DNA from: a phage
Length of the DNA: 64,000 nt
Sequence record: NC_135730.1
Direction: 5' to 3' (one strand)
Under the pieces are notes generated by a model. That model worked only from the letters and a program-made list of their open reading frames with translations, was not told the DNA's origin and did not search any database. A program made the position numbers and the translations under genes. Of this stretch, positions 3,816-60,160 are shown in pieces (positions within the stretch are counted from its first letter, which is position 1; each line of letters opens with the position of its first letter).

Positions 3816-4416
3816 TATTTTAAGTTATCAGGTTGCCAGAGATCAGGAGGATTTCTAAAATGGATTTCCTCCTTTTGATATTTTACCTGCCAGGATATTT
3901 TAAAATCCTTAGAAAATCAGAAAATGGATCGAAAACTAAAATGGATTTTTCAGAGTAGGCGCGACAAGCTGAATCACTCATCCTACCGTTTGCACCATAT
4001 TCCAGACCACCATTATAGATTTCCCGCACATGCTTACATCTCGCTACTAGAACTTCCTCCACTTACCCTTGACCTTTTATAGCAATAATCCAACCACTAT
4101 CTTGAAGTTGCGGTGCAGCTTTCCAGGTACTCGATCTGTTTTTCGTTTCAAAGATTGAATTTTCTGAAAATTTTTCTCGATAAATTTCTCAGTACTCGAT
4201 CTGTTTTTCGTTTTCTGAATCGGATTTTCTGGAAATCGCTCCGGCTCTTGGCCTAAAATTTTTGGGGACGAAATCGATTTTTCGTTTTCAGAAATGGATT
4301 TTTAAAATTTCTATACGGGAATATTTTATGGGATACTGTTTTATAGGAAATTGTTACGGAGGGTAATTAGCGTGCTAATTAAATTTATTAAATGCGAGGA
4401 GTTCTCATTTAGAATT

Positions 4417-4629: not shown

Positions 4630-4889
4630 TTTCGATAGGTATATTGTGCCACCTGGCGGGGCCGCTGTCAACACTTTTCAAAAAATTTTTCTAACCTGAT
4701 GCGCTAACCGCTGCCACCTGGCGGGGCCAGCCTGGAAAATGTAGCTATTAATGACGCTGAGGCTATCACCCTGGTTGAAAAGGCCATGGCGGGAGCGTTG
4801 GAACATAAAGAAGAGTACGAAAAAATGATGGTTAACCTGGCAGGGCGGCGGCAGGTGGATTCTATCATAAAAATAATTTAAAATAGTCG

Positions 4890-4918
4890 TTGACAACAAG
4901 GTTAATCATGGTATTATT
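4890..4918 (+). promoter_or_regulatory. sigma70-type promoter
   Basis: TTGACA, 17-nt spacer, ATTATT. Confidence 0.6.
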
Positions 4919-4967
4919 ACCCTACAAGGTGAACAACACCGCACTAACCAGTAAAGAGGATAAATTT

Positions 4968-5165
4968 ATGAACGCATACGGGATCAAAGTACGTCGCAAC
5001 ACTCGCCAGGTGGTCACCAATCAAGTGATTTGCCGGGTGGATGTAACCATCAACAACGGGCAAGGCCTTTATAAATTTCGTCGCGGTCATAGCTATACCC
5101 TGCAACAGCTTAATCGTTGCGCCCTGACAAAAGGTCAGATCAACCACTGGTTTAATAAAAAATAA
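4968..5165 (+). CDS. hypothetical protein
   Basis: ATG at 4968 after AGAGGATAA RBS; internal to track ORF 4890-5165. Confidence 0.55.
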   Translation: MNAYGIKVRRNTRQVVTNQVICRVDVTINNGQGLYKFRRGHSYTLQQLNRCALTKGQINHWFNKK

Positions 5166-5168
5166 GTA

Positions 5169-5197
5169 TTGACATATAGTCCGACACCAAATACACT
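5169..5197 (+). promoter_or_regulatory. sigma70-type promoter
   Basis: TTGACA, 17 nt, TACACT. Confidence 0.55.
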
Positions 5198-5229
5198 AAA
5201 AGCACAAAAGACACTAAGAGGATAAAATC

Positions 5230-5628
5230 ATGAAAACCACAACCTTTAATTTTGATAATGCCGACTTTTCTTTTTCTGATGTCAAGAACTGCCGCCGTGA
5301 TCGTGGATTTTACAAGGCTTATAATCTAGTGGGCCTGGACGATGACAATAATTTGCACGAAGTAGCTGAGATCCGGTATTATGCCGCCGCCAGCGGGAAC
5401 ACTTACTACTGCGTTTTTTGGATACACGACAACAAGAACAATAAGTACGGCTATACTGGCGGCAAGGCGAGCGGTCACGGTTATGATAAAGCTAACGCAG
5501 CATTTGAGAGCGCATTAAATGCTATGGGGATCACTGCCAACGGCTGGATCTATGAAGAAGAGTTTTTGTCGGCACTTGCTAACCACCTAGGCTATAAAAA
5601 GCACATTGTAACATGTGCCCACGAATAA
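5230..5628 (+). CDS. hypothetical protein
   Basis: 132-aa track ORF; AAGAGGA RBS. Confidence 0.65.
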   Translation: MKTTTFNFDNADFSFSDVKNCRRDRGFYKAYNLVGLDDDNNLHEVAEIRYYAAASGNTYYCVFWIHDNKNNKYGYTGGKASGHGYDKANAAFESALNAMGITANGWIYEEEFLSALANHLGYKKHIVTCAHE

Positions 5629-5638
5629 AAAAAAATTA

Positions 5639-5666
5639 TTGACACGCTGCAAAATTAAAGTAAACT
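5639..5666 (+). promoter_or_regulatory. sigma70-type promoter followed by 5' leader hairpin (5677-5695)
   Basis: TTGACA, 16 nt, TAAACT; leader hairpin ggcgggaatgtttcccgcc then CA-rich leader. Confidence 0.55.
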
Positions 5667-5714
5667 AGACACAAAAGGCGGGAATGTTTCCCGCCAACAC
5701 AAAGGAAAAAGATC

Positions 5715-6110
5715 ATGAATAAGAACGTACGCCGCATCATGAACGAACTGGCAAACGATGAAAAAATTATTGATATGCATTTGGTCAACATTTGCCGCCG
5801 TTGTGTAACATATAACAACCGCGCCGCAAAAGCGCGTGAGATGAACGCAAAAGGCACCTTAAAGCCCTTTCAGGTGGTTGTAAAATCTATAGCTAATGCA
5901 GCAGGCCAGGCGCATGACCACAACAACGAGAGCACTAATATTGATCCGTCTTACGTAATGAAACGGATCCGGACTTGCAAGAATAAAGAGCAGGTGTATA
6001 ACGTCATAGATTGGCTGGACTCCATGGGCGATGGGGTTTATAATAGGTTTTCTGCAGCTATCGAGATCCAGCTTGACAGATTGGACGGGAAAGTACTGAA
6101 AACTTACTGA
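5715..6110 (+). CDS. hypothetical protein
   Basis: 131-aa track ORF. Confidence 0.65.
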   Translation: MNKNVRRIMNELANDEKIIDMHLVNICRRCVTYNNRAAKAREMNAKGTLKPFQVVVKSIANAAGQAHDHNNESTNIDPSYVMKRIRTCKNKEQVYNVIDWLDSMGDGVYNRFSAAIEIQLDRLDGKVLKTY

Positions 6111-6121
6111 GTTTATTTTTA

Positions 6122-6158
6122 GATGGCCTTGACACCAGGGCCATCAATAAAGTAAACT
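6122..6158 (+). promoter_or_regulatory. palindrome-embedded promoter, copy 1
   Basis: GATGGCC-ttgacaccag-GGCCATC inverted repeat with TTGACA in the loop; near-identical copies at 6741 and 10484. Confidence 0.55.
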
Positions 6159-6189
6159 AACCACAGTTGAGCGGAAAGGGGGCTTAAAG

Positions 6190-6309
6190 ATGAGTACTAC
6201 ACGCCAGCACACAAAGGTAACTATTATCGTTTGCATCATTGGTTACATCCTGGCGCAAATGTTGATGGGTAGCGCCAACGGTATCGCAAAATTTTTCTTA
6301 AACTTTTAA
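6190..6309 (+). CDS. small hydrophobic peptide (39 aa)
   Basis: MSTTRQHTKVTIIVCIIGYILAQMLMGSANGIAKFFLNF after AAAGGGGG RBS; below track size cutoff. Confidence 0.4.
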   Translation: MSTTRQHTKVTIIVCIIGYILAQMLMGSANGIAKFFLNF

Positions 6310-6337
6310 TTGACAAGCTAACTTAGATCAGTATACT
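6310..6337 (+). promoter_or_regulatory. sigma70-type promoter
   Basis: TTGACA, 16 nt, TATACT; leader hairpin gggaaaacttccc. Confidence 0.6.
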
Positions 6338-6387
6338 AACCACATAAACGGGAAAACTTCCCAGAACACACAAAAGGAGAAAACACC

Positions 6388-6729
6388 ATGACTACTATGA
6401 CCGCCGCAGATAAAGCTATGCAGATCGCCGCGCTGAAAAAACAGATCGCAGACCTTGAGAATAAGATCGATAACTTTGAAATCGACGAGGACAAGTACGA
6501 CGAAAACTATGATGAATGGTTAGACGAGATCTACGGCGAAATTATGATCGGAAACATTTCTTTTCTTCCGTCGCGTATCCTCAAGGAGCTAGATCCTATC
6601 GCTTACCGCTGCGGATTTAGCGACTACATCGACAGCCTGGATATTGAGGACGATGAAGAATACCAGGAATTACAGACAGAGTTGGAAGAAGCAAAAGAAG
6701 AGCTTGCGGAGCTGGAAGAAAACGAGTAA
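6388..6729 (+). CDS. hypothetical acidic coiled-coil protein
   Basis: 113-aa track ORF; AAGGAG RBS. Confidence 0.65.
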   Translation: MTTMTAADKAMQIAALKKQIADLENKIDNFEIDEDKYDENYDEWLDEIYGEIMIGNISFLPSRILKELDPIAYRCGFSDYIDSLDIEDDEEYQELQTELEEAKEELAELEENE

Positions 6730-6740
6730 GATTATTTTTA

Positions 6741-6777
6741 GATGGCCTTGACTCCAGGGCCATCAATAAAGTAAACT
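6741..6777 (+). promoter_or_regulatory. palindrome-embedded promoter, copy 2
   Basis: gatggccttgactccagggccatc. Confidence 0.55.
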
Positions 6778-6818
6778 TTATACTGTTAACACTGAACTAA
6801 TGCATAGGAGTTAAAACC

Positions 6819-7064
6819 ATGGCAGCACTAATCACCAAATATTATGCCCCTACCAACACCAAAAGCGCCCGTATCATGGTAAAAGGCTTCGGACGTAAAA
6901 AGGTTTACACCTGGGATTATGCCTTAGACACGGAAGACAACTACACCAACGCGATGACCGATTTTATTAATGATCTGAACACGCGGATCTTGACAAATTA
7001 TAAAATTACCGATATTGCCTATATAGGGGAAGGCGGGATCTGTTTTGTCGGTATCGTCAAATAA
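6819..7064 (+). CDS. hypothetical protein
   Basis: 81-aa track ORF; ATAGGAG RBS. Confidence 0.6.
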   Translation: MAALITKYYAPTNTKSARIMVKGFGRKKVYTWDYALDTEDNYTNAMTDFINDLNTRILTNYKITDIAYIGEGGICFVGIVK

Positions 7065-7139
7065 GCTGTTTTTTCGGTGGTCCTGGTAGCAGGGCCATCT
7101 ATAAAGATAGTTTATCAACACAATGAAAGGAGAAAGTAC

Positions 7140-7493
7140 ATGATCAGCGGGGCAAGTTTTATTATTGGCGCTATTGCTACGGCTTTAATTGTAAACAAGA
7201 TCCAATCTAAAAACGAAAAAGAGAGCAACGCGCTCACAGAATACCCATTTTGGGTATTCAACGACAATGAAGACTACATTATCAAGTACAAGAATGAGAA
7301 GGGCGACCAGGTAACACCGCGACCGATCCCAGCTTACAAGATGCAAGAAACACTATACCGCCTAAAGGCTGGAGGCGCAAAAATCGTAGACTTTTGGGGA
7401 TATGATTGCAAGGATCAGGAGGTTATAAAGCGCCGTATCCGGGCTATTCAGGCCAATATTGAAGTTAGCAAGGGGGGAATATATGAAGATTAA
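7140..7493 (+). CDS. hypothetical protein with N-terminal hydrophobic segment
   Basis: ATG at 7140 after AAAGGAG; track ORF 7077-7493 starts at a GTG inside the upstream palindrome variant. Confidence 0.55.
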   Translation: MISGASFIIGAIATALIVNKIQSKNEKESNALTEYPFWVFNDNEDYIIKYKNEKGDQVTPRPIPAYKMQETLYRLKAGGAKIVDFWGYDCKDQEVIKRRIRAIQANIEVSKGGIYED

Positions 7494-7680
7494 TTTTGAG
7501 AAGATTGTAAAGCGATCTCATGATTCCAAAGAGCTGCCGGAACGACGCCAGCGCAACAATAAACTGAATAAGCCAAAAAGATTTGGGAAGATCTGGCGGA
7601 ATCATTATGATCGTAAATTGCCGGGCCTACTTTTGGAACGTGAACGACAGGCGGAACGATACCGCCACAAAGGCAAATAA
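7483..7680 (+). CDS. hypothetical basic protein
   Basis: ATG at 7483 within track ORF 7459-7680; followed by a terminator. Confidence 0.5.
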   Translation: MKINFEKIVKRSHDSKELPERRQRNNKLNKPKRFGKIWRNHYDRKLPGLLLERERQAERYRHKGK

Positions 7681-7687
7681 CAACCAA

Positions 7688-7716
7688 CGCCCCGCCATTG
7701 TGCGGGGCTTTTTTAT
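7688..7716 (+). terminator. rho-independent terminator
   Basis: gccccgc-cattgt-gcggggc followed by TTTTTT. Confidence 0.7.
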
Positions 7717-7863
7717 TTCTATCCTACGAATAGCGCCCCTGGTTGGCCCTGTAAACGCCATAAAAGCCCCTACCTATGCAATCCCCTTTCTTAACCTGAA
7801 AACAGCGTCTAGGGCCGTTTTATGGCGTTAAAAATGTTATTGACAGTGATTTTATTTAAAGCT

Positions 7864-7891
7864 TGACACCTTGGAATAGTCCGGATATACT
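7864..7891 (+). promoter_or_regulatory. sigma70-type promoter (second TTGACA at 7839)
   Basis: TTGACA, 16 nt, TATACT. Confidence 0.6.
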
Positions 7892-7926
7892 GACCACATC
7901 AAAGCAAGAAGGAAGGAGTAAACGCC

Positions 7927-8187
7927 ATGCGTAAATTGAAAAATTTTGATAAGGTAGATGTAGTACTGAATAATTTTTACTACTGCAATAATAAAGCCGT
8001 TTGGTGGCGTGATAGTTCCACCGATAAAGTTAAGGCGCGCTTTCTCCAAGGGCACTGGCAAGGCCGTCCAGTGATTAAAATCATGGGGCAATTGGTAGCG
8101 TTTAAAAATTGCCGCCGTGTTGATGACGTTGAAGAGATTTTAAGCATTTTGCGCCACAATAATTTAAAAAATAGTGTTGACAAGTAA
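7927..8187 (+). CDS. hypothetical protein
   Basis: 86-aa track ORF; AAGGAG RBS. Confidence 0.65.
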   Translation: MRKLKNFDKVDVVLNNFYYCNNKAVWWRDSSTDKVKARFLQGHWQGRPVIKIMGQLVAFKNCRRVDDVEEILSILRHNNLKNSVDK

Positions 8188-8204
8188 ATCTCGATAAGTA
8201 TACT
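8177..8204 (+). promoter_or_regulatory. sigma70-type promoter with leader hairpin (about 8215-8233)
   Basis: TTGACA, 16 nt, TATACT; hairpin ggcgggaaaacttcccgcc. Confidence 0.6.
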
Positions 8205-8261
8205 TAAACACACAGGCGGGAAAACTTCCCGCCACTAACAAAGAAAATAGGAGAAAATATC

Positions 8262-8885
8262 ATGACCACCGTTAACATTACCACAGGTTACAATTTATCT
8301 TTCGACGTGCTGACCGATGAACAAAAAGAAAAAGCTATTGAAATGGTCCGCGAAAGAGAAGAACACAGCGGGGATAACTTTTTTGCAGAAAGTGTAATTG
8401 AAGACTATAAAGAACATATCTTTCCAGAGTATGGCCTTGAAGATACCAAGGTACATTGGTCCGGCTTTTGGTGCCAGGGCGACGGCGCGTCAATCAGTGC
8501 GGAAAACGTGGATTTAGAAAAATTCTTGCGTAAAGTCAAGTCTCTGACTAAATTCCGCTCAATTCGTCACTTGTTCGGCACAATGCACGATGGCGAGCTA
8601 TCCGCAAGTGTTGAGCGTGATCCATATAGCCGCTATAGTCACGAAAACACTGTAAGCGGGTACATCGATACTACATGGCTAGACCTGACAGCCAAGCAAG
8701 AAAGTAAGGTTGAAGAGCTGGAAGAGCTGATCACCGAGACGGTACGGGAGCTATCCCGCAAGGTTTATGTAGACCTGGAGGAGGCCTATCTAGAACAGTT
8801 CACTACCGAAAACCTGATCGGCCTTATTGAGGCCAATGATTGGCGGTTTGATGTGGATGAATATGGAGAGATGAGTTTTTCATAA
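8262..8885 (+). CDS. hypothetical acidic protein
   Basis: 207-aa track ORF; largest gene of the early array. Confidence 0.7.
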   Translation: MTTVNITTGYNLSFDVLTDEQKEKAIEMVREREEHSGDNFFAESVIEDYKEHIFPEYGLEDTKVHWSGFWCQGDGASISAENVDLEKFLRKVKSLTKFRSIRHLFGTMHDGELSASVERDPYSRYSHENTVSGYIDTTWLDLTAKQESKVEELEELITETVRELSRKVYVDLEEAYLEQFTTENLIGLIEANDWRFDVDEYGEMSFS

Positions 8886-8974
8886 ATAAAGTGTTGCAAT
8901 AATCTAAAAACTTGCTATATTAAAACTCAAGGGGGCAAGACGTTTGCCCCACACAAAACAAAGAGGAAAACATT

Positions 8975-9355
8975 ATGAAAAACACTACTAAAGCTATTGA
9001 CACCGTTATGTTTAACCTGGTTACCTTTCGCGAGGATATGAAAGATCTTCCACGTGAAACAGTGTGCGATCACATTGAAAACTATCGCAAACTAATCAAA
9101 GAGTTGCCTTTAAAACGTGACCAGTATGCGGCTAACGCTATGCTCAACGCCATGATCAAAAAGATGATTCAGTGTGATTTAACCCTGGCTTATGATTATG
9201 CAGGTGGTCGTTTTGCAGTATACAATCAGCCCGTGCCTGGTATGGGCACCACCGAAGAATTGCACGCGCTCAATCTAAAACAAGACGTGTGGGATAGTAT
9301 GCCCCGCGTGGTGGTGTGGGCAGAAAGCGGAAAGATTTACGGCGATAATTTTTAA
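8975..9355 (+). CDS. hypothetical protein
   Basis: 126-aa track ORF; upstream TTGCAA/TATATT promoter and leader hairpin. Confidence 0.65.
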   Translation: MKNTTKAIDTVMFNLVTFREDMKDLPRETVCDHIENYRKLIKELPLKRDQYAANAMLNAMIKKMIQCDLTLAYDYAGGRFAVYNQPVPGMGTTEELHALNLKQDVWDSMPRVVVWAESGKIYGDNF

Positions 9356-9364
9356 TCAGGTAAC

Positions 9365-9392
9365 AGGCGGCATATTTGCCGCCTTATTGTTA
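9365..9392 (+). terminator. rho-independent terminator
   Basis: ggcggca-tattt-gccgcc followed by TTATTGTT. Confidence 0.55.
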
Positions 9393-9419
9393 AACAGAAC
9401 TGCAAAAGAGGTACATAGA

Positions 9420-9791
9420 ATGGAATTTATTATTTTGGCCGTATTAGTTTCCTTGTTTAACGCCTGGATCGCTGGCAAGATGGGTAGATCCGCCTTTTTA
9501 TGGTTTATTATATCTATTTTCCTGGGGGTGGTTGCAACTATTGTACTTGTTATCCTTGCAATTGTTGACAAGGGGAATAATAGAAAGGGTAAAGTATTTT
9601 CAGACCTGTACGACGCTCAAACATTTGTCAACGCCTACTACAGCGATCTTCCAGTCTCCCTACGTTGCAGCCTTGCACAACAGGTTTTCGATGAAGCTAA
9701 AACCAGAGATCACGCCCATGAGATTTGTTTAACTGAGGCGGATCGCCTATTTGAGAGGAATAGAAAATATGTGGACCAGCCGTTTAAATAA
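9420..9791 (+). CDS. hypothetical membrane protein
   Basis: ATG at 9420 within track ORF 9387-9791; two predicted TM segments. Confidence 0.55.
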   Translation: MEFIILAVLVSLFNAWIAGKMGRSAFLWFIISIFLGVVATIVLVILAIVDKGNNRKGKVFSDLYDAQTFVNAYYSDLPVSLRCSLAQQVFDEAKTRDHAHEICLTEADRLFERNRKYVDQPFK

Positions 9792-9990
9792 TGCCACGTT
9801 AATTAATCCCTTTAGTGAAGATTTGAAGCCAGCCGCCTGGCGCGATGGATTCAATAACGAAAGCTTTATTTTCAGGCCTGATCTTAAGGAATTTTATAAC
9901 AATGGATCGAACAACGACAGAGATAATTTTTCTTGTAATGTGCGTGGTGATAATACTCCTGGGGGCCATTGCAAACCACGTCACTGCTAA
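9769..9990 (+). CDS. hypothetical Asn-rich protein (an alternative frame 9902-10027 encodes a TM peptide)
   Basis: ATG at 9769 with GAGAGGA RBS; competing overlapping frame. Confidence 0.3.
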   Translation: MWTSRLNNATLINPFSEDLKPAAWRDGFNNESFIFRPDLKEFYNNGSNNDRDNFSCNVRGDNTPGGHCKPRHC

Positions 9991-10010
9991 CAGGAGGGGA
10001 GGGGGAGACG

Positions 10011-10130
10011 ATGACAACCAAGGATAAGCCCCGCACCGATAAGGTGCGCCGTGTTATGGTATGGCTTGAGATCATCGCCCTTGAAATATTGTTAGGCGTA
10101 GGGATGTACTTTATCGCTGTAAGTAACTGA
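10011..10130 (+). CDS. small hydrophobic peptide (39 aa)
   Basis: MTTKDKPRTDKVRRVMVWLEIIALEILLGVGMYFIAVSN after AGGAGGGG RBS. Confidence 0.35.
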   Translation: MTTKDKPRTDKVRRVMVWLEIIALEILLGVGMYFIAVSN

Positions 10131-10133
10131 TAA

Positions 10134-10166
10134 CGGCCCCCAATCCCTGGGGGCTTAACTTTTTCA
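10134..10166 (+). terminator. rho-independent terminator
   Basis: gccccca/tgggggc stem followed by a T-run. Confidence 0.5.
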
Positions 10167-10270
10167 AAAATTTTTCTTCCCGGGTGTTGCAATCCGGTCC
10201 GGAATATGGATAATAACAATCAACGGGGAAACATCCCCACCAACACAAAAACCAGAAAGGAGAAACAAAA

Positions 10271-10471
10271 ATGAGCAACAATATCCGCGTTATTAACTTC
10301 AAAAAAGAAGAAAAAATTGCCGTGCTGATTGACGGTCAAGAAATCTTCAAGGGCGACTATGAAGATCATCAAACGGCGATTAGTATCACTCGCGTGATTG
10401 GTTACCATAATTTTTACCCCCAAGGCGCTGAGGCGGCGGTTAAACGAATCAAAGAGATTGTAGGCCTGTAA
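10271..10471 (+). CDS. hypothetical protein
   Basis: 66-aa track ORF; leader hairpin ggggaaacatcccc; AAAGGAG RBS. Confidence 0.6.
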   Translation: MSNNIRVINFKKEEKIAVLIDGQEIFKGDYEDHQTAISITRVIGYHNFYPQGAEAAVKRIKEIVGL

Positions 10472-10483
10472 AATTTATTTTTA

Positions 10484-10520
10484 GATGGCCTTGACTCTAG
10501 GGCCATCAATAAAGTAAATT
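10484..10520 (+). promoter_or_regulatory. palindrome-embedded promoter, copy 3
   Basis: gatggccttgactctagggccatc. Confidence 0.55.
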
Positions 10521-10556
10521 TAAACCCTGTTAAAATAATCAGTGCAAAAAGGAGTA

Positions 10557-10862
10557 ATGATCATGTTTATCCAGGCTAATAATCTTTATTTCTTTGATGG
10601 TCAGATCGTAGACGGCGTGGAGGTGGAAATCACCGGGTGCCCTGGCGGTCAGGTTATGACTTTTCGGAATAATGCCTTTGATGATTCTCATATCGTTATG
10701 AGAATGGAAGTTAGTAAGCTGGATGACAAGAAAACACTTATCGACTATTCTGTGAAAGATCATCCAGACTACCACATGATCTATGGTGATTTGTGCGTTG
10801 TTGACCGTGACAAGGTGGGCGGCATTGTGATCGCTATTGTGAACGATGTTTTCTCAAACTAA
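10557..10862 (+). CDS. hypothetical protein
   Basis: ATG at 10557 (or 10563) after AAAGGAG; within track ORF 10542-10862. Confidence 0.55.
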   Translation: MIMFIQANNLYFFDGQIVDGVEVEITGCPGGQVMTFRNNAFDDSHIVMRMEVSKLDDKKTLIDYSVKDHPDYHMIYGDLCVVDRDKVGGIVIAIVNDVFSN

Positions 10863-10879
10863 TTTCAGCAGGTGATTTT

Positions 10880-11230
10880 ATGAAAGTAAAACTATATTAC
10901 CTTAATGAGCTTAACCCCCTTGCCCAGGTCCGCGCCATAGCTAATACCTTGATTTGTGAGAAATCTGTATATTGTGTTGAGCTTAACGCCATGCGTGAAC
11001 GTCTCAAAGGTGGTTACTTTGACATCCATACTGCAATCAACGGCCTGAATATGGAATTTATACGCTTACGTAACAGCCGCTGGAATCTGGCAAGAATGGA
11101 ACAAGATCCGGCCTACCTTCGTAAGCTGGTTATTGAAAATCATCTGATGTTTAATGCCGAGGGTGATTATTACCATTTTCACCGCAGACGCTGGTACCGT
11201 GGCGGCAATACAGGCAAGAATGCAAAATAA
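10880..11230 (+). CDS. hypothetical protein
   Basis: 116-aa track ORF. Confidence 0.6.
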   Translation: MKVKLYYLNELNPLAQVRAIANTLICEKSVYCVELNAMRERLKGGYFDIHTAINGLNMEFIRLRNSRWNLARMEQDPAYLRKLVIENHLMFNAEGDYYHFHRRRWYRGGNTGKNAK

Positions 11231-11261
11231 GGCCCCTAGCAGGGCCTGCAGCAATATAATC

Positions 11262-11300
11262 ACATAAAGGCTATGCGGTTGCATGGCCTTTATTATTTTG
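11262..11300 (+). terminator. rho-independent terminator
   Basis: 8-bp stem ggctatgc/gcatggcc followed by TTTATTATTTT. Confidence 0.55.
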
Positions 11301-11430
11301 GCGTTACAACGGCATACGGGGCGCTTAAAAATTTTTAAAAAGTACTTGCATCATTCCCGACAATATGGATAATAGGACGCATCAGGGGGGCGGCCCCCAA
11401 TCATTAACCGGATAGATAGGAGTTAAAACC

Positions 11431-11715
11431 ATGGCTATTGTTACCGTTGGCGATGTAGTGGAAATGGAAGCAAAATACTTAAAAGCGGGTATGCATATCC
11501 TTCGGAACGATCAAGAAATGTTGCTGACTATGGTTGACTATAATCCTGGGCAGGATTATCCTAGCGTTGACTACTTTTTCCAGTATGTTGATGAAGAATT
11601 AAAAGAGGATGAGGCTTATTGCGGTGAGTTCTGCAACTTCTTTTGCCCGGATGAAGTTGTAAAAGTTATCTATCAACCTGGCGTACCTTTCCCGCTACAC
11701 GCTATCAATAAATAA
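11431..11715 (+). CDS. hypothetical acidic protein
   Basis: 94-aa track ORF; TTGCAT/GATAAT promoter; ATAGGAGTTAAAACC leader as for the 6819 gene. Confidence 0.65.
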   Translation: MAIVTVGDVVEMEAKYLKAGMHILRNDQEMLLTMVDYNPGQDYPSVDYFFQYVDEELKEDEAYCGEFCNFFCPDEVVKVIYQPGVPFPLHAINK

Positions 11716-11771
11716 ACCTGGCGGGGCCGAAAAGGCCCCCCAATTATGAAAATAAAGAGAGGCAAATCATC

Positions 11772-12002
11772 ATGATGGAACAAATTAAACGCGCCGAGGC
11801 TATTAATGGCAACGTGATCTATTTTGTCAGCAATAACGAAAAAGGCGTACCATATGCGGCGGTAATAGTACAGCCTGACGGCGATTATTGGTTTACTGTG
11901 TACGGCGCTTACTCTTTTGGGCGTCCAGTGCATGATAAAATTTTGAAAGTAGCGAACCCTACCGGGAAGAATATCACAGCAGAAAAATTTTTTGAAAAAT
12001 AG
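11772..12002 (+). CDS. hypothetical protein
   Basis: 76-aa track ORF; leader hairpin ggggccgaaaaggcccc. Confidence 0.6.
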   Translation: MMEQIKRAEAINGNVIYFVSNNEKGVPYAAVIVQPDGDYWFTVYGAYSFGRPVHDKILKVANPTGKNITAEKFFEK

Positions 12003-12082
12003 TTGACATGGCCTTATAAGACTGTAGAATATAAATCAAAGGGGGCAACAAGCCCCACCAACCACAAAGAGGATAAAAAATC

Positions 12083-12262
12083 ATGGCTATTATTGCAAAG
12101 ACTGAGATCGTAGGCTTAGATTCTATTCTCCTCGCATATGAGGAAGCTATAGAAATGTATGTGGTTTCCTATGGTGAATATATCCGTGAATATAAATCTA
12201 TTGATCTGGCTTTTGAATGTTATATTCGCCAGGTTAATAAAGCGTACGATGATTATCGTTAA
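12083..12262 (+). CDS. hypothetical protein (59 aa)
   Basis: own TTGACA promoter, leader hairpin, AAAGAGGA RBS; below track cutoff. Confidence 0.45.
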   Translation: MAIIAKTEIVGLDSILLAYEEAIEMYVVSYGEYIREYKSIDLAFECYIRQVNKAYDDYR

Positions 12263-12352
12263 AATAGCTTGACAACAAACAACCATCTAACAAAGCATAA
12301 TACATAAGGCGGTGGAATGGTCCGCCACCTGGAACAAGAAGAGGAAAACAAG

Positions 12353-12457
12353 ATGAAACAGAAATTAATTGATGCGGTGATCCTGGTTATTGCCCTGGGT
12401 ATTGGCCTGATTGCAACCATGTCTAATATGATCTTGTCTTCCAACGGTATCGGGTGA
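12353..12457 (+). CDS. small hydrophobic peptide (34 aa)
   Basis: MKQKLIDAVILVIALGIGLIATMSNMILSSNGIG after promoter, hairpin and AAGAGGA RBS. Confidence 0.4.
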   Translation: MKQKLIDAVILVIALGIGLIATMSNMILSSNGIG

Positions 12458-12466
12458 GGTTGGCAA

Positions 12467-12682
12467 ATGATCACTAACAAAACAGGCAAAACAGAATTTT
12501 TACGCAACTTACAGATCGGCAAGCCTGAGATCTGGTATTGCACTAAAACACCACGTGACGAAATGAAAGACTTCACCGCCACGCTGCAACGGGTAAAGAT
12601 ATCCATCACGCAGAAAAAGGCCTTATTAGTGGTGGAAGGTGAGATCCCCCAAACCGTTGTTATAGTTGAGCGTACAGCATAG
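12467..12682 (+). CDS. hypothetical protein
   Basis: 71-aa track ORF. Confidence 0.55.
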   Translation: MITNKTGKTEFLRNLQIGKPEIWYCTKTPRDEMKDFTATLQRVKISITQKKALLVVEGEIPQTVVIVERTA

Positions 12683-12773
12683 TTTAATTTATACCGATAC
12701 CCGAAAATTAACCAACAAAGCATAAACAGGCGGTTACCGCCGCCTTAAACGTAGCAGAAAGAGGATAGACACA

Positions 12774-13058
12774 ATGAAAAAGATGATCGCAGTGGTTGCC
12801 CTGGTTGTTGGACTTAATGCGCCTGTAATGGCTAAAGAGCTGGCAAAAGAGGTTAATCTAACGGATATTCATGCCGTCAATCAAATCGGGGTTACTTATC
12901 GCTTATGCCTTGCCGCTAAAACTTTCCAGGACGGCACGACAGAGTACTACGGATTCGAGGGTATCCGGTGCGGTGAGCTTGCTCGCGACCTTAAGGAAGA
13001 TCCAGATCTGGAAGATCTACCCATCACCGTAAACGGTAAAGCTTACGTAAACCGTTAA
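12774..13058 (+). CDS. hypothetical secreted/periplasmic protein
   Basis: 94-aa track ORF; N-terminal signal-peptide-like MKKMIAVVALVVGLNAPVMA. Confidence 0.6.
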   Translation: MKKMIAVVALVVGLNAPVMAKELAKEVNLTDIHAVNQIGVTYRLCLAAKTFQDGTTEYYGFEGIRCGELARDLKEDPDLEDLPITVNGKAYVNR

Positions 13059-13060
13059 CC

Positions 13061-13195
13061 ATGAGAAAGATAACCATCACCTTGGGGATTGTGGTAGCAA
13101 TACTGGCGCTCTTTCCCCTTATGGTTAGGTATGTGCTGATCAGTGTTGTCCTGATAGTCAGTGATCTATTGGAAACGGTTGGCACCTTGTTTTAA
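13061..13195 (+). CDS. small hydrophobic peptide (44 aa)
   Basis: MRKITITLGIVVAILALFPLMVRYVLISVVLIVSDLLETVGTLF; below track cutoff. Confidence 0.35.
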   Translation: MRKITITLGIVVAILALFPLMVRYVLISVVLIVSDLLETVGTLF

Positions 13196-13208
13196 AGAGC
13201 GATAAAAA

Positions 13209-13400
13209 ATGAATATCGAACAAGTTAGAAAGGTATTAGCGGTACTGCGTTATCATAATCATAGAAAGGTCATAGACGATCCTGATTATGTTGATTCAAG
13301 CCTGGAAGAGGATACACTACAAGCCATAAGTAACATGCAAGAATTGCTAAAGCGCATGACAGAGAAAAACCGACCGGACTACATAGGCGAAAAAATATAA
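13209..13400 (+). CDS. hypothetical protein
   Basis: 63-aa track ORF followed by a terminator. Confidence 0.55.
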   Translation: MNIEQVRKVLAVLRYHNHRKVIDDPDYVDSSLEEDTLQAISNMQELLKRMTEKNRPDYIGEKI

Positions 13401-13416
13401 TATTTATAAACTACAA

Positions 13417-13446
13417 AACAGGGCTTGCAATGGTCCTGTTTTTTGT
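13417..13446 (+). terminator. rho-independent terminator
   Basis: acagg/cctgt stem followed by TTTTTTG. Confidence 0.55.
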
Positions 13447-13458
13447 TATACTTATTCC

Positions 13459-13507
13459 ACGGCAGGCACCTGGCGACGGGGGGAGACAATCACCGGGCCT
13501 GCCTGTC
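13459..13507 (-). repeat. GC-rich hairpin element, copy 3 (inverted)
   Basis: reverse complement reads ggcaggcccggtgattgtctccccccgtcgccaggtgcctgcc. Confidence 0.6.
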
Positions 13508-13611
13508 ATATAAGAACTATAAAAACCGTTGACATCTGCCATGGGGTGGGGTAACATTTATCTTGAAGGGGCAAAAGTGCCCACACAACACCCAGGAGAG
13601 AGGAAAACATT

Positions 13612-13884
13612 ATGTCAAGCTGGATTAATCAAGAAGTCGAATCACGTTTTAATGCTATATGGGATCTCATCGAAAAAGAGGACGGAACATCAAGCCCCTA
13701 CCTCAACAATTTGGAATTCCATTTTGTGGAAGCGATGAACGCAGAACATGATCACGAAGGTGGCGCGGATGAGTTCGCTAAAGGTTATGGCTTTAACAAT
13801 GCCAACGAAATGATCGAGGCGGTCGTACTCCAGGCTGAGGAAGATTATCAATTAAAAACGCTTGAATTCTGCCGCCGTAAGTAA
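13612..13884 (+). CDS. hypothetical acidic protein
   Basis: 90-aa track ORF; TTGACA promoter at about 13533; leader hairpin gggcaaaagtgccc. Confidence 0.65.
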   Translation: MSSWINQEVESRFNAIWDLIEKEDGTSSPYLNNLEFHFVEAMNAEHDHEGGADEFAKGYGFNNANEMIEAVVLQAEEDYQLKTLEFCRRK

Positions 13885-13944
13885 TAAGATAATGACATGG
13901 GCCAAAAGGCCCACTAATCAGAACCACACAAAGAGAGAAAGAAA

Positions 13945-14163
13945 ATGACAACCCGTAAAATTAAAGTTGTTTGCATTGAATCGACTGGGGGCGCTTTTGT
14001 AGTTGGTCAGGAATATAATGCGGTTTTAATGGGTACGGATTGGAAGGTTAAAGGCCTTAATGGTTACGAGTACGGCACTACTTGCGGCTTGCGTGGTCGA
14101 ATCGGATACGTGAGTTTAGACAATAAAGAAAAATTTGTTTTCGACACCCTTGTGAGTAAATAG
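13945..14163 (+). CDS. hypothetical protein
   Basis: 72-aa track ORF; leader hairpin gggccaaaaggccc. Confidence 0.6.
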   Translation: MTTRKIKVVCIESTGGAFVVGQEYNAVLMGTDWKVKGLNGYEYGTTCGLRGRIGYVSLDNKEKFVFDTLVSK

Positions 14164-14240
14164 CATGAATTGCTAAAAACTGATCTGCGAACTGCTGTAT
14201 TATCAACTAATCAAAACGAACCACATAAAGAGGAAACATC

Positions 14241-14504
14241 ATGAAACGTCTGGATCAGCTTAAATTAGTTCAGTACATGGCCTACAGAATTCTTGAAGTC
14301 CAAAAAGGTAGCAAAAAAGAGGTTTGCGAGAAAGCTTATAAGATCTTTACCCGCAAAAAAGATGACTGGATGCTACGCCAGACCAAAAAGGCTGACATCT
14401 TGGGGTACCTGGAAGAAGAGATCCGCCTTGAAGAGCAAGAAGAGATCCGCCGTAGTGAGGCAGATTATCAGGCAGCTTGGGAAAGCTGGATGAGTAACAA
14501 ATAA
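14241..14504 (+). CDS. hypothetical protein
   Basis: 87-aa track ORF; AAAGAGGA RBS. Confidence 0.6.
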   Translation: MKRLDQLKLVQYMAYRILEVQKGSKKEVCEKAYKIFTRKKDDWMLRQTKKADILGYLEEEIRLEEQEEIRRSEADYQAAWESWMSNK

Positions 14505-14646
14505 TACAACAAGTTACGGTCAGGGGGTAATAAAGCCCCTTGATCACATAAAAATTATGCTATCCTTGGTTGACAAGGATCGGCAGTTTTGCTATATTCT
14601 TTTTGAAGGGAAGTTGTAAGAAAATTAACTAAGAGGTAAAAACACC

Positions 14647-15066
14647 ATGAACATTAAATCTAATAATCCGGCATATAGCTTTGATAACGCTTTTTGTCAC
14701 GGTCCGGCGGCGAAAGGATTCGAAATCGATGGTAAACTAATTATTGTCAATGTTGACGGGGAAGAGGTTGCAGTATATCCGGTGGCAGACGTTAAAAGCC
14801 GTTTGCAATGCCGCATGGATGTTACCGCCTATCAGCTTGATCCGGTCCGCATAGTTGCCCTGGTCCTGGAAGAAGAAATTAAAGCCATGCACCATAGCAA
14901 CAGGTTTATTGGTGACGCTCAGGATAATATGAAGGTATGCCGCTATAAAGTTAATGAAGTGCTTAAAGAATATGGATTTAAGGATCTGATGATCAAACGT
15001 GATGAAAAATTCCGCTACCGTAACGACCTGGCAAATCGGATTTTTGAAATATACGAATCATTATAA
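14647..15066 (+). CDS. hypothetical protein
   Basis: 139-aa track ORF; TTGACA/TATATT promoter at about 14567-14600. Confidence 0.65.
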   Translation: MNIKSNNPAYSFDNAFCHGPAAKGFEIDGKLIIVNVDGEEVAVYPVADVKSRLQCRMDVTAYQLDPVRIVALVLEEEIKAMHHSNRFIGDAQDNMKVCRYKVNEVLKEYGFKDLMIKRDEKFRYRNDLANRIFEIYESL

Positions 15067-15084
15067 TTTTTTAACTGAATTATC

Positions 15085-15110
15085 AAGGGGCTTAGGCCCC
15101 TTTCTTTTTG
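15085..15110 (+). terminator. rho-independent terminator ending the + strand early block
   Basis: aagggg-cttag-gcccct followed by TTCTTTTTG. Confidence 0.65.
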
Positions 15111-17500: not shown

Positions 17501-17541
17501 AGGTGCGCTTCCAGCACTTTAGCCGGGCAGCTAATTGTGTG

Positions 17542-17757
17542 TCAGTCCAGCGGTTCATCCTCTACTTCACTGAAATCAATGTTCATGGTCTCTTCCCAAC
17601 CATCGATCTCAGCACAAGAGTGGAGTTCTTTAGGGTTTACTCCCAAAGCCTCAGCAACAGAGTCTATATTTAACACCTCTGGCAGGTATGATTCATCGAA
17701 TTCAAGGTAAATCAGGCCACGAGTGTTGTCAGCTCCACCAAATATTTCTATCTTCAT
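17542..17757 (-). CDS. small acidic protein (family A-like)
   Basis: ATG at 17757 after AGAGGAG RBS; starts MKIEIF; within track ORF 17542-17823. Confidence 0.5.
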   Translation of the reverse strand: MKIEIFGGADNTRGLIYLEFDESYLPEVLNIDSVAEALGVNPKELHSCAEIDGWEETMNIDFSEVEDEPLD

Positions 17758-17877
17758 GAAATCTCCTCTGGAAATGAGAATGTGAACAGGGTTTATATGT
17801 TCCAATGCACTGGAATTATGCACGTTTGCCTCTTCAGGCCATGCTTTAGCATGAGGAACCTGTGTGGGCTCGGTGCT

Positions 17878-18090
17878 TCATAGTCTACCACCTCTGAACT
17901 CTTCGTGCTCAGGCATAATAGAGAACCAGATATCTACGATGTCTTCCCACGTTAGGTCATCAGCCTCAGGATCTACCTGGAGCGAAGATGGAGAATCTTC
18001 AGAATCGAAGTTTTCCTCTTGCACTGGCTCAGTCAAGGGACATATAGTCACTCCTTTGGATGTCTCTTCAGATGCATGTGTGTTTATCAT
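17878..18090 (-). CDS. hypothetical acidic protein
   Basis: ATG at 18090 overlapping the stop of an upstream 29-aa TM peptide (ATGA coupling); within track ORF 17878-18291. Confidence 0.4.
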   Translation of the reverse strand: MINTHASEETSKGVTICPLTEPVQEENFDSEDSPSSLQVDPEADDLTWEDIVDIWFSIMPEHEEFRGGRL

Positions 18091-59994: not shown

Positions 59995-60069
59995 GCCCTG
60001 TTAGCTTAGTGGATAAAGCAGCGGCCTTCTAAGCCGTTGACACTGGTTCGAGTCCAGTACGGGGTGCCA
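59995..60069 (+). tRNA. tRNA-Arg (anticodon UCU)
   Basis: manual cloverleaf; anticodon loop CTTCTAA; T-loop GGTTCGAGTCC; CCA present. Confidence 0.7.
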
Positions 60070-60073
60070 AATT

Positions 60074-60160
60074 GGGGAGTTATCCCGTAGAGGTAGCGGT
60101 GTAGACTGTAAATCTATTGTCATTGCGACTCGGGTGGTTCGACTCCACCACTCCCCACCA
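60074..60160 (+). tRNA. tRNA-Tyr (anticodon GUA), type II
   Basis: acceptor GGGGAGT/ACTCCCC; loop CTGTAAA; long variable arm; T-loop TTCGACT. Confidence 0.7.

Follow-up and report, generated by a model that had tools for sequence, protein, structure and literature searches.

Positions 4890-15110 of a 64,000-nucleotide stretch of phage DNA (record NC_135730.1; this whole stretch is called the window below, and positions count from its first letter) carry an array of small genes that, to judge from its sequence, is assembled from about 20 portable expression cassettes of roughly 75 nucleotides (nt) each, of the promoter-early stem-loop (PeSL) type. In its full form such a cassette would open with an AT-rich stretch and a near-consensus sigma70 promoter, continue with a short stem-loop rich in GC and an unstructured, A/C-rich leader with ACA motifs, and end in a strong Shine-Dalgarno (SD) sequence. 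The cassette type itself is already known; here it appears in a phage group for which we found no report of it, and the geometry of its dominant sub-type points to a role at the 5' end of the messenger RNA (mRNA). Aggregated, the data make it probable, in our view, that the region is a variable early-gene array, in which the dominant hairpin stabilizes 5' ends, stem-loops attenuate RNA arriving from upstream, and the cassettes serve as recombination sites. Within the 64-kb window, the cassettes are confined to 4890-15110.

The phage was placed by comparison to deposited genomes. The 10.2-kb stretch matches 238 phage records, 73 of which cover at least 80% of it. The closest are the Campylobacter phages C5 and C2, as deposited (97.5-97.8% identity), followed by many Escherichia Vequintavirus genomes (92-95%), with rV5 itself at 94%. 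On the strength of these matches we assign the window to an rV5-like coliphage, a Vequintavirus.

Promoters, hairpins and leaders recur as a single module

The array comprises 29 genes, all on the plus strand between 4968 and 15066, encoding proteins of 34-207 amino acids (aa), with start codons picked by SD sequences and by agreement with the annotation of relatives. Each of the 29 proteins matches a PHROG family (E 8e-23 to 1e-95), and the genes are therefore real, conserved phage genes. This agrees with the original prediction, a reading of the letters alone that had proposed an array of about 30 small genes. On the plus strand, 32 promoter-like sites agree with the consensus at 9 or more of 12 positions, as compared to 12.3 ± 3.3 in 200 dinucleotide shuffles and 7 on the minus strand. 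An upstream site of its own is present for 16 or 17 of the 29 genes, 10 of these sites matching at least 10 of the 12 positions. Hence it is correct that most genes possess a promoter, as had been claimed, while the wording 'nearly every' was too generous, since about 12 genes (8, 12-14, 17, 19, 22-25 and 28) are without one. Several of the latter are packed head-to-tail behind a gene with a promoter. The 22 nt upstream of 16 of the -35 boxes are 76% AT, against 57.5% for the array.

GC-rich leader hairpins were recovered at 12 sites, preceding genes 3, 5, 10, 11, 15, 18, 19, 20, 21, 23, 26 and 27, where at least ten had been proposed. Here we refer to type A when the stem starts 9-12 nt after the -10 box, and to type B when the hairpin instead encloses the -35 box. 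Nine of the 12 form type A promoter-hairpin pairs, as compared to 0.25 ± 0.5 (maximum 2) in 200 shuffles, an approximately 36-fold enrichment, and no pair with this spacing is present on the minus strand. A check for hairpins inside upstream coding sequence returned none, all 12 being intergenic.

The segments between stem and SD consist of 56% A, 25% C, 9% G and 10% T, and their A+C content of 81.5% (52% array-wide) was reached by none of 20000 equal-size random sets, which substantiates the CA-rich spacers of the original prediction. Similarly, ACA motifs occur 31 times in the 23-nt windows upstream of the SD of the 29 genes, as compared to 12.1 ± 3.7 and a maximum of 29 in 5000 random sets. 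The SD sequences read AGAGGA, AAGGAG or AGGAG and are located 6-9 nt before the ATG; these stretches correspond to the repeat families D2 and D5-D7. When queried against Rfam 15, no match in the array reaches its gathering score, and permissive thresholds yield one sub-threshold chance match.

The distance between -10 box and stem is strikingly constant, 10.7 ± 0.7 nt, whereas the leader between stem and SD measures 12.6 ± 3.9 nt (F = 31, p = 3e-5). With the transcription start (+1) set at the usual distance of 7-8 nt past the -10 box, 1-6 unpaired nucleotides, mostly 3-4, are predicted in front of the stem. For all nine predicted type A 5' untranslated regions, folding gives one hairpin close to the 5' end and leaves the SD region mostly open. 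The constant spacing would locate the hairpin within a few nt of the predicted mRNA 5' end, as required for a 5' stabilizer.

The 10 nt following leader or type B hairpins contain 0-3 T, compared to 5-9 after the five sites of the array with the look of ordinary terminators (7689, 10135, 11264, 13415 and 15085). The leader hairpins are thus not canonical terminators, as already supposed, because the U tract is missing. Read on the opposite strand, seven of the 12 are flagged as terminator-like, with the A-rich gap turning U/G-rich, and the authors of the rV5 genome found no terminator between convergent units (PMC3606486). The hairpins could accordingly be imagined to end antisense, minus-strand transcription and to protect the array from the minus-strand block on its right. 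A true U run is however found only at the gene 3 hairpin (TTTTGTGTCT), other tails being interrupted (for example TGTGTGTTTA and GTTGATTGTT), and a G-T pair within a stem turns into a C-A mismatch when the minus strand is read. As this proposal also leaves the strict tie to plus-strand promoters and SD sequences unexplained, we regard it as very improbable.

A second hairpin class and related cassettes in other genera

Repeat analysis recovered a 49-nt family (AGTTTATTTTTAGATGGCCTTGACNCCAGGGCCATCAATAAAGTAAACT) in which the -35 box sits in the loop of a 10-bp hairpin; its members start at 6110, 6729 and 10472, and a degenerate one, 69% identical, at 7064. This type B class went beyond the original prediction, as did the match to published PeSL cassettes. 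A 24-nt pattern is matched exactly by the three good copies and by nothing else in the window, and it is found in all nine Vequintavirus loci compared. For this and the following comparisons we exploited nine Vequintavirus (L001-L003 and L010-L015) and two Phapecoctavirus loci (L016 and L017). In the degenerate copy before gene 7 the stem is retained with two G-U (G-T) pairs, workable on the plus strand only. The gene 29 promoter, the leader of which is not CA-rich, carries a related stem over its -35 box. In total, 12 hairpins are located downstream of a -10 box and five overlap a -35 box.

The promoter-hairpin design is shared by other genera. It is present in 19 of 26 long intergenic regions of the Phapecoctavirus Mt1B1_P17, where it is more regular than in the window, and in 9 of 16 of the Justusliebigvirus EmilieFrey. 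In these phages, about 10 nt, often GTATCACATAG, separate TTGACA-N16-18-TAnnnT from a hairpin of the GGCGG..CCGCC type, after which come a short leader and an SD. A pool of 35 cassettes from the three genera contained 33 distinct hairpin sequences, with the main stem 9-12 nt after the -10 box, a mean folding energy of -13.5 kcal/mol and no U tracts. The Phapecoctavirus homologue of gene 19 has a complete promoter-hairpin cassette, and gene 27, 90-91% identical in Phapecoctavirus, is there located behind a hairpin that encloses the -10 box. Moreover, the same genes stand behind different cassette subclasses in different genera, and an identical hairpin, GGCGGGAATGTTTCCCGCC, precedes unrelated genes in two subfamilies. 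In the open-access literature we found no report of PeSL-like cassettes in rV5-like or phAPEC8-like phages (Phapecoctavirus).

Stems are conserved as base pairs

Divergence from the window is absent in the -35 box (0.000) and low in the SD (0.029), the two stem arms (0.028 and 0.055) and the -10 box (0.047). It rises through the CA-rich leader (0.072), the gap between -10 box and stem (0.097) and the promoter spacer (0.112) to the hairpin loop (0.145). Stems hence evolve 3-5 times slower than loops and spacers. Column-wise counting of pairs on MAFFT alignments of the leaders proved misleading, because insertions and deletions in the G/C runs shift the register, and for the same reason RNAalifold recovered only 4 pairs from 34 paralogous cassettes. 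We therefore refolded each orthologue. A perfect GC hairpin was detected at the same place in all but two of about 110 orthologous leaders, the two exceptions displaying single mismatches in an 8-bp stem.

Several stems change in sequence while the pairing is kept. The gene 18 stem GGGGG/CCCCC is replaced by GGAGGT/GCCTCC or GGGGGC/GCCTCC, the gene 23 stem is GGGGCG/CGCCCC in one Phapecoctavirus and AGGGCG/CGCCCT in the other, and the gene 29 stem over the -35 box covaries from ATCCTTG/CAAGGAT to ATCCCTG/CAGGGAT in relatives. The gene 15 stem is lengthened on both sides among orthologues, and the gene 21 stem of one relative has two changes, both of which improve the pairing. One-sided changes mostly result in G-T pairs on the plus strand. 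Such a pattern is what selection on a folded plus strand, as RNA or as single-stranded DNA, predicts.

These observations bear on two further explanations. Conceivably, the inverted repeats act in DNA, either as operators through which a phage or host protein shuts off the early promoters, or as targets of a structure-specific nuclease or recombinase driving cassette exchange. They are located over the -35 box or at +3 to +22, which are classic operator positions, and in Phapecoctavirus and Justusliebigvirus they are fairly uniform (GGCGGGAA or GGCGGCAA types) and follow the conserved GTATCACATAG motif. Junctions of insertions and deletions fall within cassettes, and in one case a crossover of phage RB49 was mapped inside the loop of a stem-loop (PMC2839356). 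On the other hand, 33 sequences among 35 cassettes, and orthologues that alter the sequence and keep the pairing, fit a folded single strand rather than a site bound by a sequence-specific protein. The tolerance of plus-strand G-T pairs, whose opposite-strand counterparts are C-A mismatches, also speaks against a role in DNA, and the array proteins include no candidate repressor that we could identify. We consider a role in DNA improbable. Alternatively, the hairpins may be functionless relics of old terminators or of cassette duplication that are carried neutrally, and decayed cassettes are indeed present, as illustrated by the gene 23 promoter, the -35 box of gene 7 and the orphan -35 box at 7840. 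Slow stem evolution, pairing maintained in three genera and the excess over shuffled sequence are difficult to reconcile with neutrality, to which we give hardly any credence.

Cassettes coincide with most junctions of gene gain and loss

Genes 10, 17, 20, 21, 24 and 27 are each missing in some relative, relatives possess extra genes, and the genes shared with Phapecoctavirus stand in a different order. We distinguished 13 insertion, deletion or replacement events in the nine relatives sampled. In 8-9 of them a junction falls within a promoter, a hairpin or a leader, and in six a repeat of 6-49 nt is present at the junction. Gene 27 is absent from seven of the nine Vequintavirus loci, and its gain or loss is bounded by two copies of GAACCACA[C/T]AAAGAG, located in leaders that follow one another. 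The loss of gene 10 in YP-6 has its junction between AGTGTTGACA and AGTGTTGCAA, two -35 regions. Genes 4-5 were lost in L002 between two of the 49-nt type B repeats, genes 21-22 were replaced in L003 between a -35 box and an SD, and an extra 246-nt gene of four relatives is flanked by a 32-nt repeat of leader and start codon. The orphan TTGACA at 7840 marks the spot of extra genes in two relatives. Gene 17 was lost through three independent deletions, each with breakpoints of its own, in rV5 (L001), L002 and the O157 typing phage 4 (L015); its presence may carry a cost or be selected against in some hosts.

When the array is compared to the T4-like phage RB49, the best short DNA matches are leader, SD and start-codon stretches, with 29 of 32 and 24 of 26 nt identical. 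In principle these are long enough to seed recombination of unrelated phages; they are A-rich, however, and could be convergent. In addition, the gene 26 product is 36% identical (E 3.5e-10) to RB49p266, which in RB49 stands behind its own early promoter.

Possible roles of the stem-loops

How might such cassettes operate? Unmodified host RNA polymerase with sigma70 would start at each of them soon after DNA entry, an early timing that we infer from the type and quality of the promoters. In the transcript, the type A stem would begin at about +3 to +5. The stabilizing effect of 5' hairpins on Escherichia coli mRNAs is generally explained by the requirement of RppH, and of the RNase E 5' sensor, for a single-stranded 5' end (PMC3997798). 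Combined with the predicted 5'-proximal stem, we therefore take the type A hairpin as a 5' stabilizer, which would shield the triphosphate end from RppH and from 5'-end-dependent attack by RNase E. The leader, U-poor and rich in ACA, would recruit ribosomes and leave RNase E few sites to cleave; in the enteric bacterium Salmonella, ACA motifs directly in front of an SD have been proven to enhance translation (PMC3879156). In read-through RNA, type A and type B stem-loops alike could act as attenuators or 3' barriers that insulate neighboring genes. Hairpins enclosing a -35 or -10 box, or without a promoter, would act only on upstream RNA or at the DNA level. Finally, the repeated cassettes would be sites of homologous recombination at which small genes are added, deleted and swapped between related phages.

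It is also possible, albeit rather unlikely, that the stem-loops act mainly on upstream transcripts, terminating or attenuating read-through or blocking 3' exonucleases after processing, with each gene relying on its own promoter only and the near-5' position in the next mRNA being a by-product of packing into about 80 nt. Several hairpins are in agreement with such a role, because no transcripts but those from upstream can contain them: type B hairpins and that of gene 29 surround a -35 box, the one at the gene 27 homologue of Phapecoctavirus surrounds a -10 box, and those of genes 19 and 23 have no promoter. So is the degenerate type B copy before gene 7, which kept the stem and lost the -35 box. 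A PeSL stem-loop of RB49 furthermore cut downstream lacZ expression as much as rrnB T1 did (PMC2839356), yet that reporter assay cannot separate termination from RNA decay or processing. The stems in the array lack U tracts, while canonical hairpin-plus-U terminators are used at five other array sites, and the type A stem is anchored to the -10 box (standard deviation 0.7 nt) rather than to the upstream stop codon or the SD. Fixed promoter distance and missing U tracts therefore argue against attenuation as the sole role. From hairpins that enclose a -35 or -10 box, or have no promoter, and are without U tracts, we expect weak termination at most or a block of 3' exonucleases.

Several considerations speak against the combined reading of 5' stabilization, attenuation and recombination that we favor. 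A literature search for transcriptomes or start-site maps of rV5-like phages recovered no transcription start sites, 3' ends or half-lives, and where the hairpin lies in the transcript is predicted solely by assuming the usual distance between -10 box and +1. A predicted unpaired 5' tail of 4-6 nt may let RppH or RNase E engage. Three leader hairpins (genes 19, 23 and 27) have no convincing promoter, and the constant spacing could partly reflect common descent and homogenization of paralogous cassettes instead of selection. The PeSL authors measured terminator-like activity of one RB49 stem-loop, not stabilization (PMC2839356). Type B hairpins and the -10-enclosing hairpin of Phapecoctavirus cannot be part of the downstream mRNA, and 5' stabilization is therefore not the only role of the hairpins. 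Thus, of the shared mRNA stabilizing or processing module in the original prediction, the repeated unit of promoter, hairpin, CA-rich leader and SD holds, while stabilization would be one role beside at least one other. As for recombination, genes 17 and 24 were lost through junctions outside cassettes, which consequently are not the sole route, and selection against gene-disrupting deletions alone could enrich junctions in intergenic DNA.

Four other classes of element were ruled out: RNase III sites, as the stems are only 5-10 bp; CsrA sites, as the loops have no consistent GGA; a rho-utilization site, as the CA-rich stretches are only 7-19 nt and soon translated; and an antitermination RNA resembling HK022 put, as there is a single small hairpin per gene rather than two stem-loops after an early promoter.

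More tentatively, and with less conviction than for the roles favored above, the unit of promoter, hairpin and CA-rich leader may be a common currency of gene exchange among unrelated virulent coliphages of the rV5-like, phi92/phAPEC8-like and RB49-like groups, with the same hairpin setting the life span of the mRNA from its 5' end. Through near-identical cassette stretches of 25-50 nt, small genes equipped for expression would be transferred by homologous recombination inside a phage family as well as from one family to another, integron-like and without an integrase. Genes with different cassette subclasses in different genera, the shared hairpin GGCGGGAATGTTTCCCGCC, the RB49 DNA matches and the RB49 homologue of gene 26 hint in this direction.

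If the reading favored above is correct, PeSL-type cassettes would not be peculiar to T4-like phages, but would serve large virulent coliphages in general for keeping, expressing and exchanging accessory genes, including the pools from which transposon screens have yielded host-range and anti-defense functions in this group (bioRxiv 10.1101/2025.11.20.689424). The cassette would represent a compact, natural and self-contained expression unit of about 75 nt, and the 33 hairpins in 35 cassettes a ready-made series on how mRNA stability and translation in E. coli depend on 5' hairpins and ACA leaders. For annotation, cassettes can serve as markers of real small genes and of transcription units in genomes of the rV5 type; the equivalent region of rV5 has only six annotated promoters. 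Overall, we consider this a useful but moderate advance.

The array proteins and their genomic setting

The coordinates of cassettes, terminators and genes are collected in Table 1. Genes 12-14 (9420-10130) are tightly packed, none with a cassette of its own, and genes 23-25 (12774-13400) are likewise close together. All 29 PHROG families are of unknown function, and Pfam assigns a family only to gene 8, leaving 28 of the 29 without. That family, PF08200, is the T7 gene 1.1 protein family (gp1.1) and is the sole Pfam match above cut-off in the array; such membership fits early transcription by host RNA polymerase but proves nothing. For genes 2, 10 and 29, a sequence search of the PDB returned no relatives. 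The structure predicted for the gene 10 protein is confident (predicted local distance difference test score, pLDDT, 87.6), and the model has no convincing match among the solved structures of the PDB. The earlier statement that no product has a recognizable fold was consequently nearly right, with gene 8 and the confident gene 10 model as qualifications. In an alignment of 21 gene 10 sequences, 12 residues are invariant (G58, G68, F69, Q72, G73, D74, G75, R119, H127, R162, Y169 and L172), including a GF..QGDG motif. The protein has two close loci in IMG/VR, and distant homologues occur in unrelated metagenomic viral contigs.

Regarding function in the host, the original prediction proposed host takeover or anti-defense, for which the 29 genes would be candidates. 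According to the BASEL study (PMC8594841), Vequintavirinae are exceptionally sensitive to restriction-modification systems, which counts against effective anti-restriction genes. In a transposon study of the Vequintavirus Bas54 (HIDEN-SEQ), 146 of 227 genes were dispensable and a few, bas54_0108 among them, conditionally needed.

The equivalent region of the rV5 record spans open reading frames (ORFs) 164-196, all 'hypothetical', with the six annotated promoters being of sigma70 type. Genome-wide, 33 promoters and 20 terminators were predicted for rV5, and the genes of the region were assigned to the far end of one long transcription unit (genes 10-1-238-164); leader hairpins are not mentioned in that paper (PMC3606486). 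In the window, GC skew and ORF orientation reveal plus-strand genes from 1 to about 15100 and a large minus-strand block from about 18000 to 56000. The two are separated by approximately 2.7 kb without credible ORFs (15110-17900), which include short direct and inverted repeats around 15711-15911. We take this gap to be the equivalent of an intergenic region of about 2 kb in Bas54 in which transposon insertions are not tolerated (HIDEN-SEQ preprint), and it may be an origin or a packaging-related site.

Upstream of the array, the non-coding gap at 4120-4310 contains three direct repeats of about 52 nt, 65-74 nt apart, and a 17-nt repeat, TGCCACCTGGCGGGGCC, is found at 4647 and 4712 (4647-4728). 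Neither has an Rfam match. Near 4731-4735, the length differs by 57-116 nt among relatives. Within the array, an element, GGCAGGCACCTGGCGACGGGGGGAGACAATCACCGGGCCTGCC, occupies 13461-13503, 8 nt past the promoter-like TATACT with which the terminator-promoter composite (13415-13452) ends. All Vequintavirus loci conserve the sequence of this element, which is still recognizable in Phapecoctavirus, and across these loci no covariation supporting a structure was detected; it could be a small RNA or a protein site. The hairpin at 9365-9394 may be a leaky terminator before gene 12.

Elsewhere in the window, a group I intron is present on the plus strand at 62327-62605 (Rfam RF00028, 84 bits with a gathering score of 50), and seven transfer RNA genes are located at 59995-60807 (Arg, Tyr, Ser, one odd call, Thr, Met and Pro), the odd call at 60464-60562 having a 4-base anticodon. 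GenBank MG065659, MG065655 and about 20 other close relatives are filed as 'Campylobacter phage' with Campylobacter jejuni as host, a label that looks like a mis-assignment or a contaminant in the data set.

Table 1. Cassettes, terminators, genes and RB49 matches of the array, by position in the window (stem-loops written as stem-loop-stem).
Feature	Position	Strand	Description
Gene 1 cassette	4890-4967	+	TTGACA-16-TATTAT (11/12, TG-extended); CA-rich leader, no hairpin; SD AAAGAGGA
Gene 2 cassette	5169-5229	+	TTGACA-17-TACACT; A/C-rich leader, no hairpin; SD AAGAGGA
Gene 3 cassette, type A	5639-5714	+	TTGACA-16-TAAACT; 10-nt gap; hairpin GGCGGGAA-tgt-TTCCCGCC 5677-5695; leader AACACAA; SD
Gene 4 cassette, type B	6110-6189	+	49-nt repeat copy; 10-bp hairpin 6122-6145 around -35 TTGACA (6129-6134); -10 TAAACT ends 6158
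Gene 5 cassette, type A	6310-6387	+	TTGACA-16-TATACT (11/12); GGGAA-aac-TTCCC 6350-6362; leader AGAACACACAA; SD AAGGAG
Gene 6 cassette, type B	6729-6818	+	hairpin 6741-6764 around -35 TTGACT; -10 TAAACT
Gene 7 cassette, degenerate type B	7064-7139	+	hairpin 7076-7099 kept; -35 box lost (CTGGTA)
Gene 9 cassette	7840-7926	+	promoter 7863-7891 TTGACA-17-TATACT (11/12); no hairpin; orphan -35 TTGACA 7840-7845
Gene 10 cassette, type A	8177-8261	+	TTGACA-16-TATACT (11/12); hairpin GGCGGGAA-aac-TTCCCGCC 8215-8233
Gene 11 cassette, type A	8894-8974	+	TTGCAA-16-TATATT; GGGGCAA-gacgt-TTGCCCC 8932-8950; leader ACACAAAACAA; SD AGAGGA
Gene 15 cassette, type A	10187-10270	+	TTGCAA-16-GATAAT; GGGGA-aaca-TCCCC 10225-10238; leader ACCAACACAAAAACCAGA; SD AAGGAG
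Gene 16 cassette, type B	10472-10562	+	hairpin 10484-10507 around -35 TTGACT; -10 TAAATT
Gene 18 cassette, type A	11346-11430	+	TTGCAT-16-GATAAT; GGGGG-gcgg-CCCCC 11385-11398
Gene 19 hairpin	11723-11739	+	GGGGCC-gaaaa-GGCCCC; promoter absent
Gene 20 cassette, type A	12003-12082	+	TTGACA-16-TAGAAT (11/12); GGGGC-aacaa-GCCCC 12042-12056; leader ACCAACCACAA; SD AGAGGA
Gene 21 cassette, type A	12269-12352	+	TTGACA-18-AAGCAT (weak -10); AGGcGGTGGA-atgg-TCCGCCaCCT 12307-12330
Gene 23 hairpin	12728-12745	+	AGGCGGT-tacc-GCCGCCT; promoter decayed; upstream sequence paralogous to gene 21 cassette
Gene 26 cassette, type A	13529-13611	+	TTGACA-17-TAACAT; GGGCA-aaag-TGCCC 13569-13582; leader ACACAACACCC; SD AGGAGAGAGGA
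Gene 27 cassette	13862-13944	+	weak TTGAAT-17-TAAGAT; TGGGCC-aaaa-GGCCCA 13898-13913; leader with GAACCACACAAAGAG, junction of gene 27 presence/absence
Gene 28 leader	14164-14240	+	no convincing promoter or hairpin; holds GAACCACATAAAGAG, second copy of gene 27 junction repeat
Gene 29 cassette	14562-14646	+	ATCCTTG-gttga-CAAGGAT 14562-14580 overlaps -35 of TTGACA-17-TATATT (11/12, TG-extended)
Terminator	7689-7718	+	canonical; 7-bp all-GC stem then TTTTTTATTT
Hairpin before gene 12	9365-9394	+	AGGCGGCAtattTGCCGCCT; weak T-rich tail (5 T in 10 nt); no promoter
Terminator-like hairpin	10135-10165	+	GGCCCCCaatccctGGGGGCT then TAACTTTTTC
Terminator	11264-11303	+	13-bp hairpin then TATTTTGG; second hairpin 11230-11247 precedes
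Terminator-promoter composite	13415-13452	+	11-bp hairpin with TTGCAA -35-like box in loop; T run as spacer; then TATACT
Terminator closing array	15085-15112	+	AAGGGGCttagGCCCCTT then TCTTTTTGTC
Gene 1	4968-5165	+	65 aa, phrog_7119
Gene 2	5230-5628	+	132 aa, phrog_7028
Gene 3	5715-6110	+	131 aa, phrog_13245
Gene 4	6190-6309	+	39 aa, phrog_16391
Gene 5	6388-6729	+	113 aa, phrog_9294
Gene 6	6819-7064	+	81 aa, phrog_3199
Gene 7	7140-7493	+	117 aa, phrog_12734
Gene 8	7483-7680	+	65 aa, basic; overlaps end of gene 7; PF08200, E 3.8e-10
Gene 9	7927-8187	+	86 aa, phrog_11241
Gene 10	8262-8885	+	207 aa, phrog_5162; missing in phage YP-6
Gene 11	8975-9355	+	126 aa, phrog_7352
Gene 12	9420-9791	+	123 aa
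Gene 13	9769-9990	+	73 aa
Gene 14	10011-10130	+	39 aa
Gene 15	10271-10471	+	66 aa, phrog_12347
Gene 16	10563-10862	+	99 aa
Gene 17	10880-11230	+	116 aa
Gene 18	11431-11715	+	94 aa, phrog_12610
Gene 19	11772-12002	+	76 aa, phrog_9227; common to Phapecoctavirus and Justusliebigvirus
Gene 20	12083-12262	+	59 aa, phrog_9374
Gene 21	12353-12457	+	34 aa
Gene 22	12467-12682	+	71 aa
Gene 23	12774-13058	+	94 aa
Gene 24	13061-13195	+	44 aa
Gene 25	13209-13400	+	63 aa
Gene 26	13612-13884	+	90 aa, phrog_7287; homologue of RB49p266
Gene 27	13945-14163	+	72 aa, phrog_27558
Gene 28	14241-14504	+	87 aa, phrog_11701
Gene 29	14647-15066	+	139 aa, phrog_12277
RB49 matches	8953-8984, 10256-10281		L019 23674-23705, 24685-24710

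Comparison with known systems

The host-takeover module of Bacillus phage SPO1 and the pre-early and early regions of T5 and T4 are composed of small genes of mostly unknown function, which are the first to be expressed, from numerous strong promoters of the host type and with strong ribosome sites. The array resembles them as a cluster of about 25-30 small, mostly function-unknown genes, but there is no homology, and to our knowledge a module of hairpin and CA-rich leader is not a described feature of those regions. Ordinary intrinsic terminators are likewise different, as the leader and type B hairpins have no U tract.

At the level of the single leader, the T7 gene 10 leader hairpin of pET vectors is similar to 5'-terminal stem-loop stabilizers. 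The established examples of the latter in E. coli are the ompA and papA 5' untranslated regions (Emory, Bouvet and Belasco 1992; Arnold et al. 1998; in PMC3997798). With these the type A cassette would share a short stable hairpin a few nt from the predicted 5' end, followed by an unstructured ribosome-binding region. In contrast, 5' ends in the array are predicted only. Its hairpins do not approach the size of the ompA leader, recur in front of many genes and are found, too, at places where a 5'-terminal position is impossible. Similarly, ACA-containing, U/G-poor stretches directly upstream of the SD recall the translation enhancers described in enteric bacteria by Yang, Figueroa-Bossi and Bossi (2014, PMC3879156) and may have comparable activity in the array; the host ACA elements are targets of the small RNA GcvB.

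The closest counterpart is the PeSL, described in hyperplastic regions of the T4-like phages RB49/phi1 and later PST/T4 and nt-1/KVP40, and covered by its authors for T4-like phages only (Arbiol et al. 2010, PMC2839356; Comeau et al. 2014, PMC4122927). It is defined by an AT-rich stretch, a strong sigma70-like promoter, a stem-loop that is often polyG-loop-polyC, and an SD with ATG. The stem-loop may be found upstream of the -35 box, over it, between the boxes, over the -10 box or after it, and PeSLs are enriched beside ORFans and where indels have occurred. For RB49/phi1 there are measurements of termination, of promoter strength and of the formation of mini-circles, and the authors proposed termination or attenuation together with recombinational gene shuffling (same references); the indel junctions in the array cassettes fit the shuffling part of that proposal. 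There are differences. The phage studied here belongs to the Vequintavirinae, the design being found also in Stephanstirmvirinae, and is without the T4 transcription program. The restriction of the described family to T4-like myoviruses is a limit of description, not a mechanistic feature. Furthermore, the dominant stem is located 9-12 nt downstream of the -10 box, whereas in RB49 it is mostly between the boxes or over the -10 box. Nevertheless, the array agrees with PeSLs in the AT-rich upstream region, the near-consensus sigma70 promoter, the Gn-loop-Cn stem-loop at variable positions and the SD with ATG, in clustering within a variable region of small function-unknown genes, and in lying at insertion, deletion and replacement junctions between close relatives. 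When RB49 cassettes are read directly, they display the same architecture, down to CA-rich leaders such as cacacataccgaaacgaac before AGGAG. With all sequence-level features of a PeSL represented, the module of the array appears to be a PeSL-type cassette in a different phage lineage.

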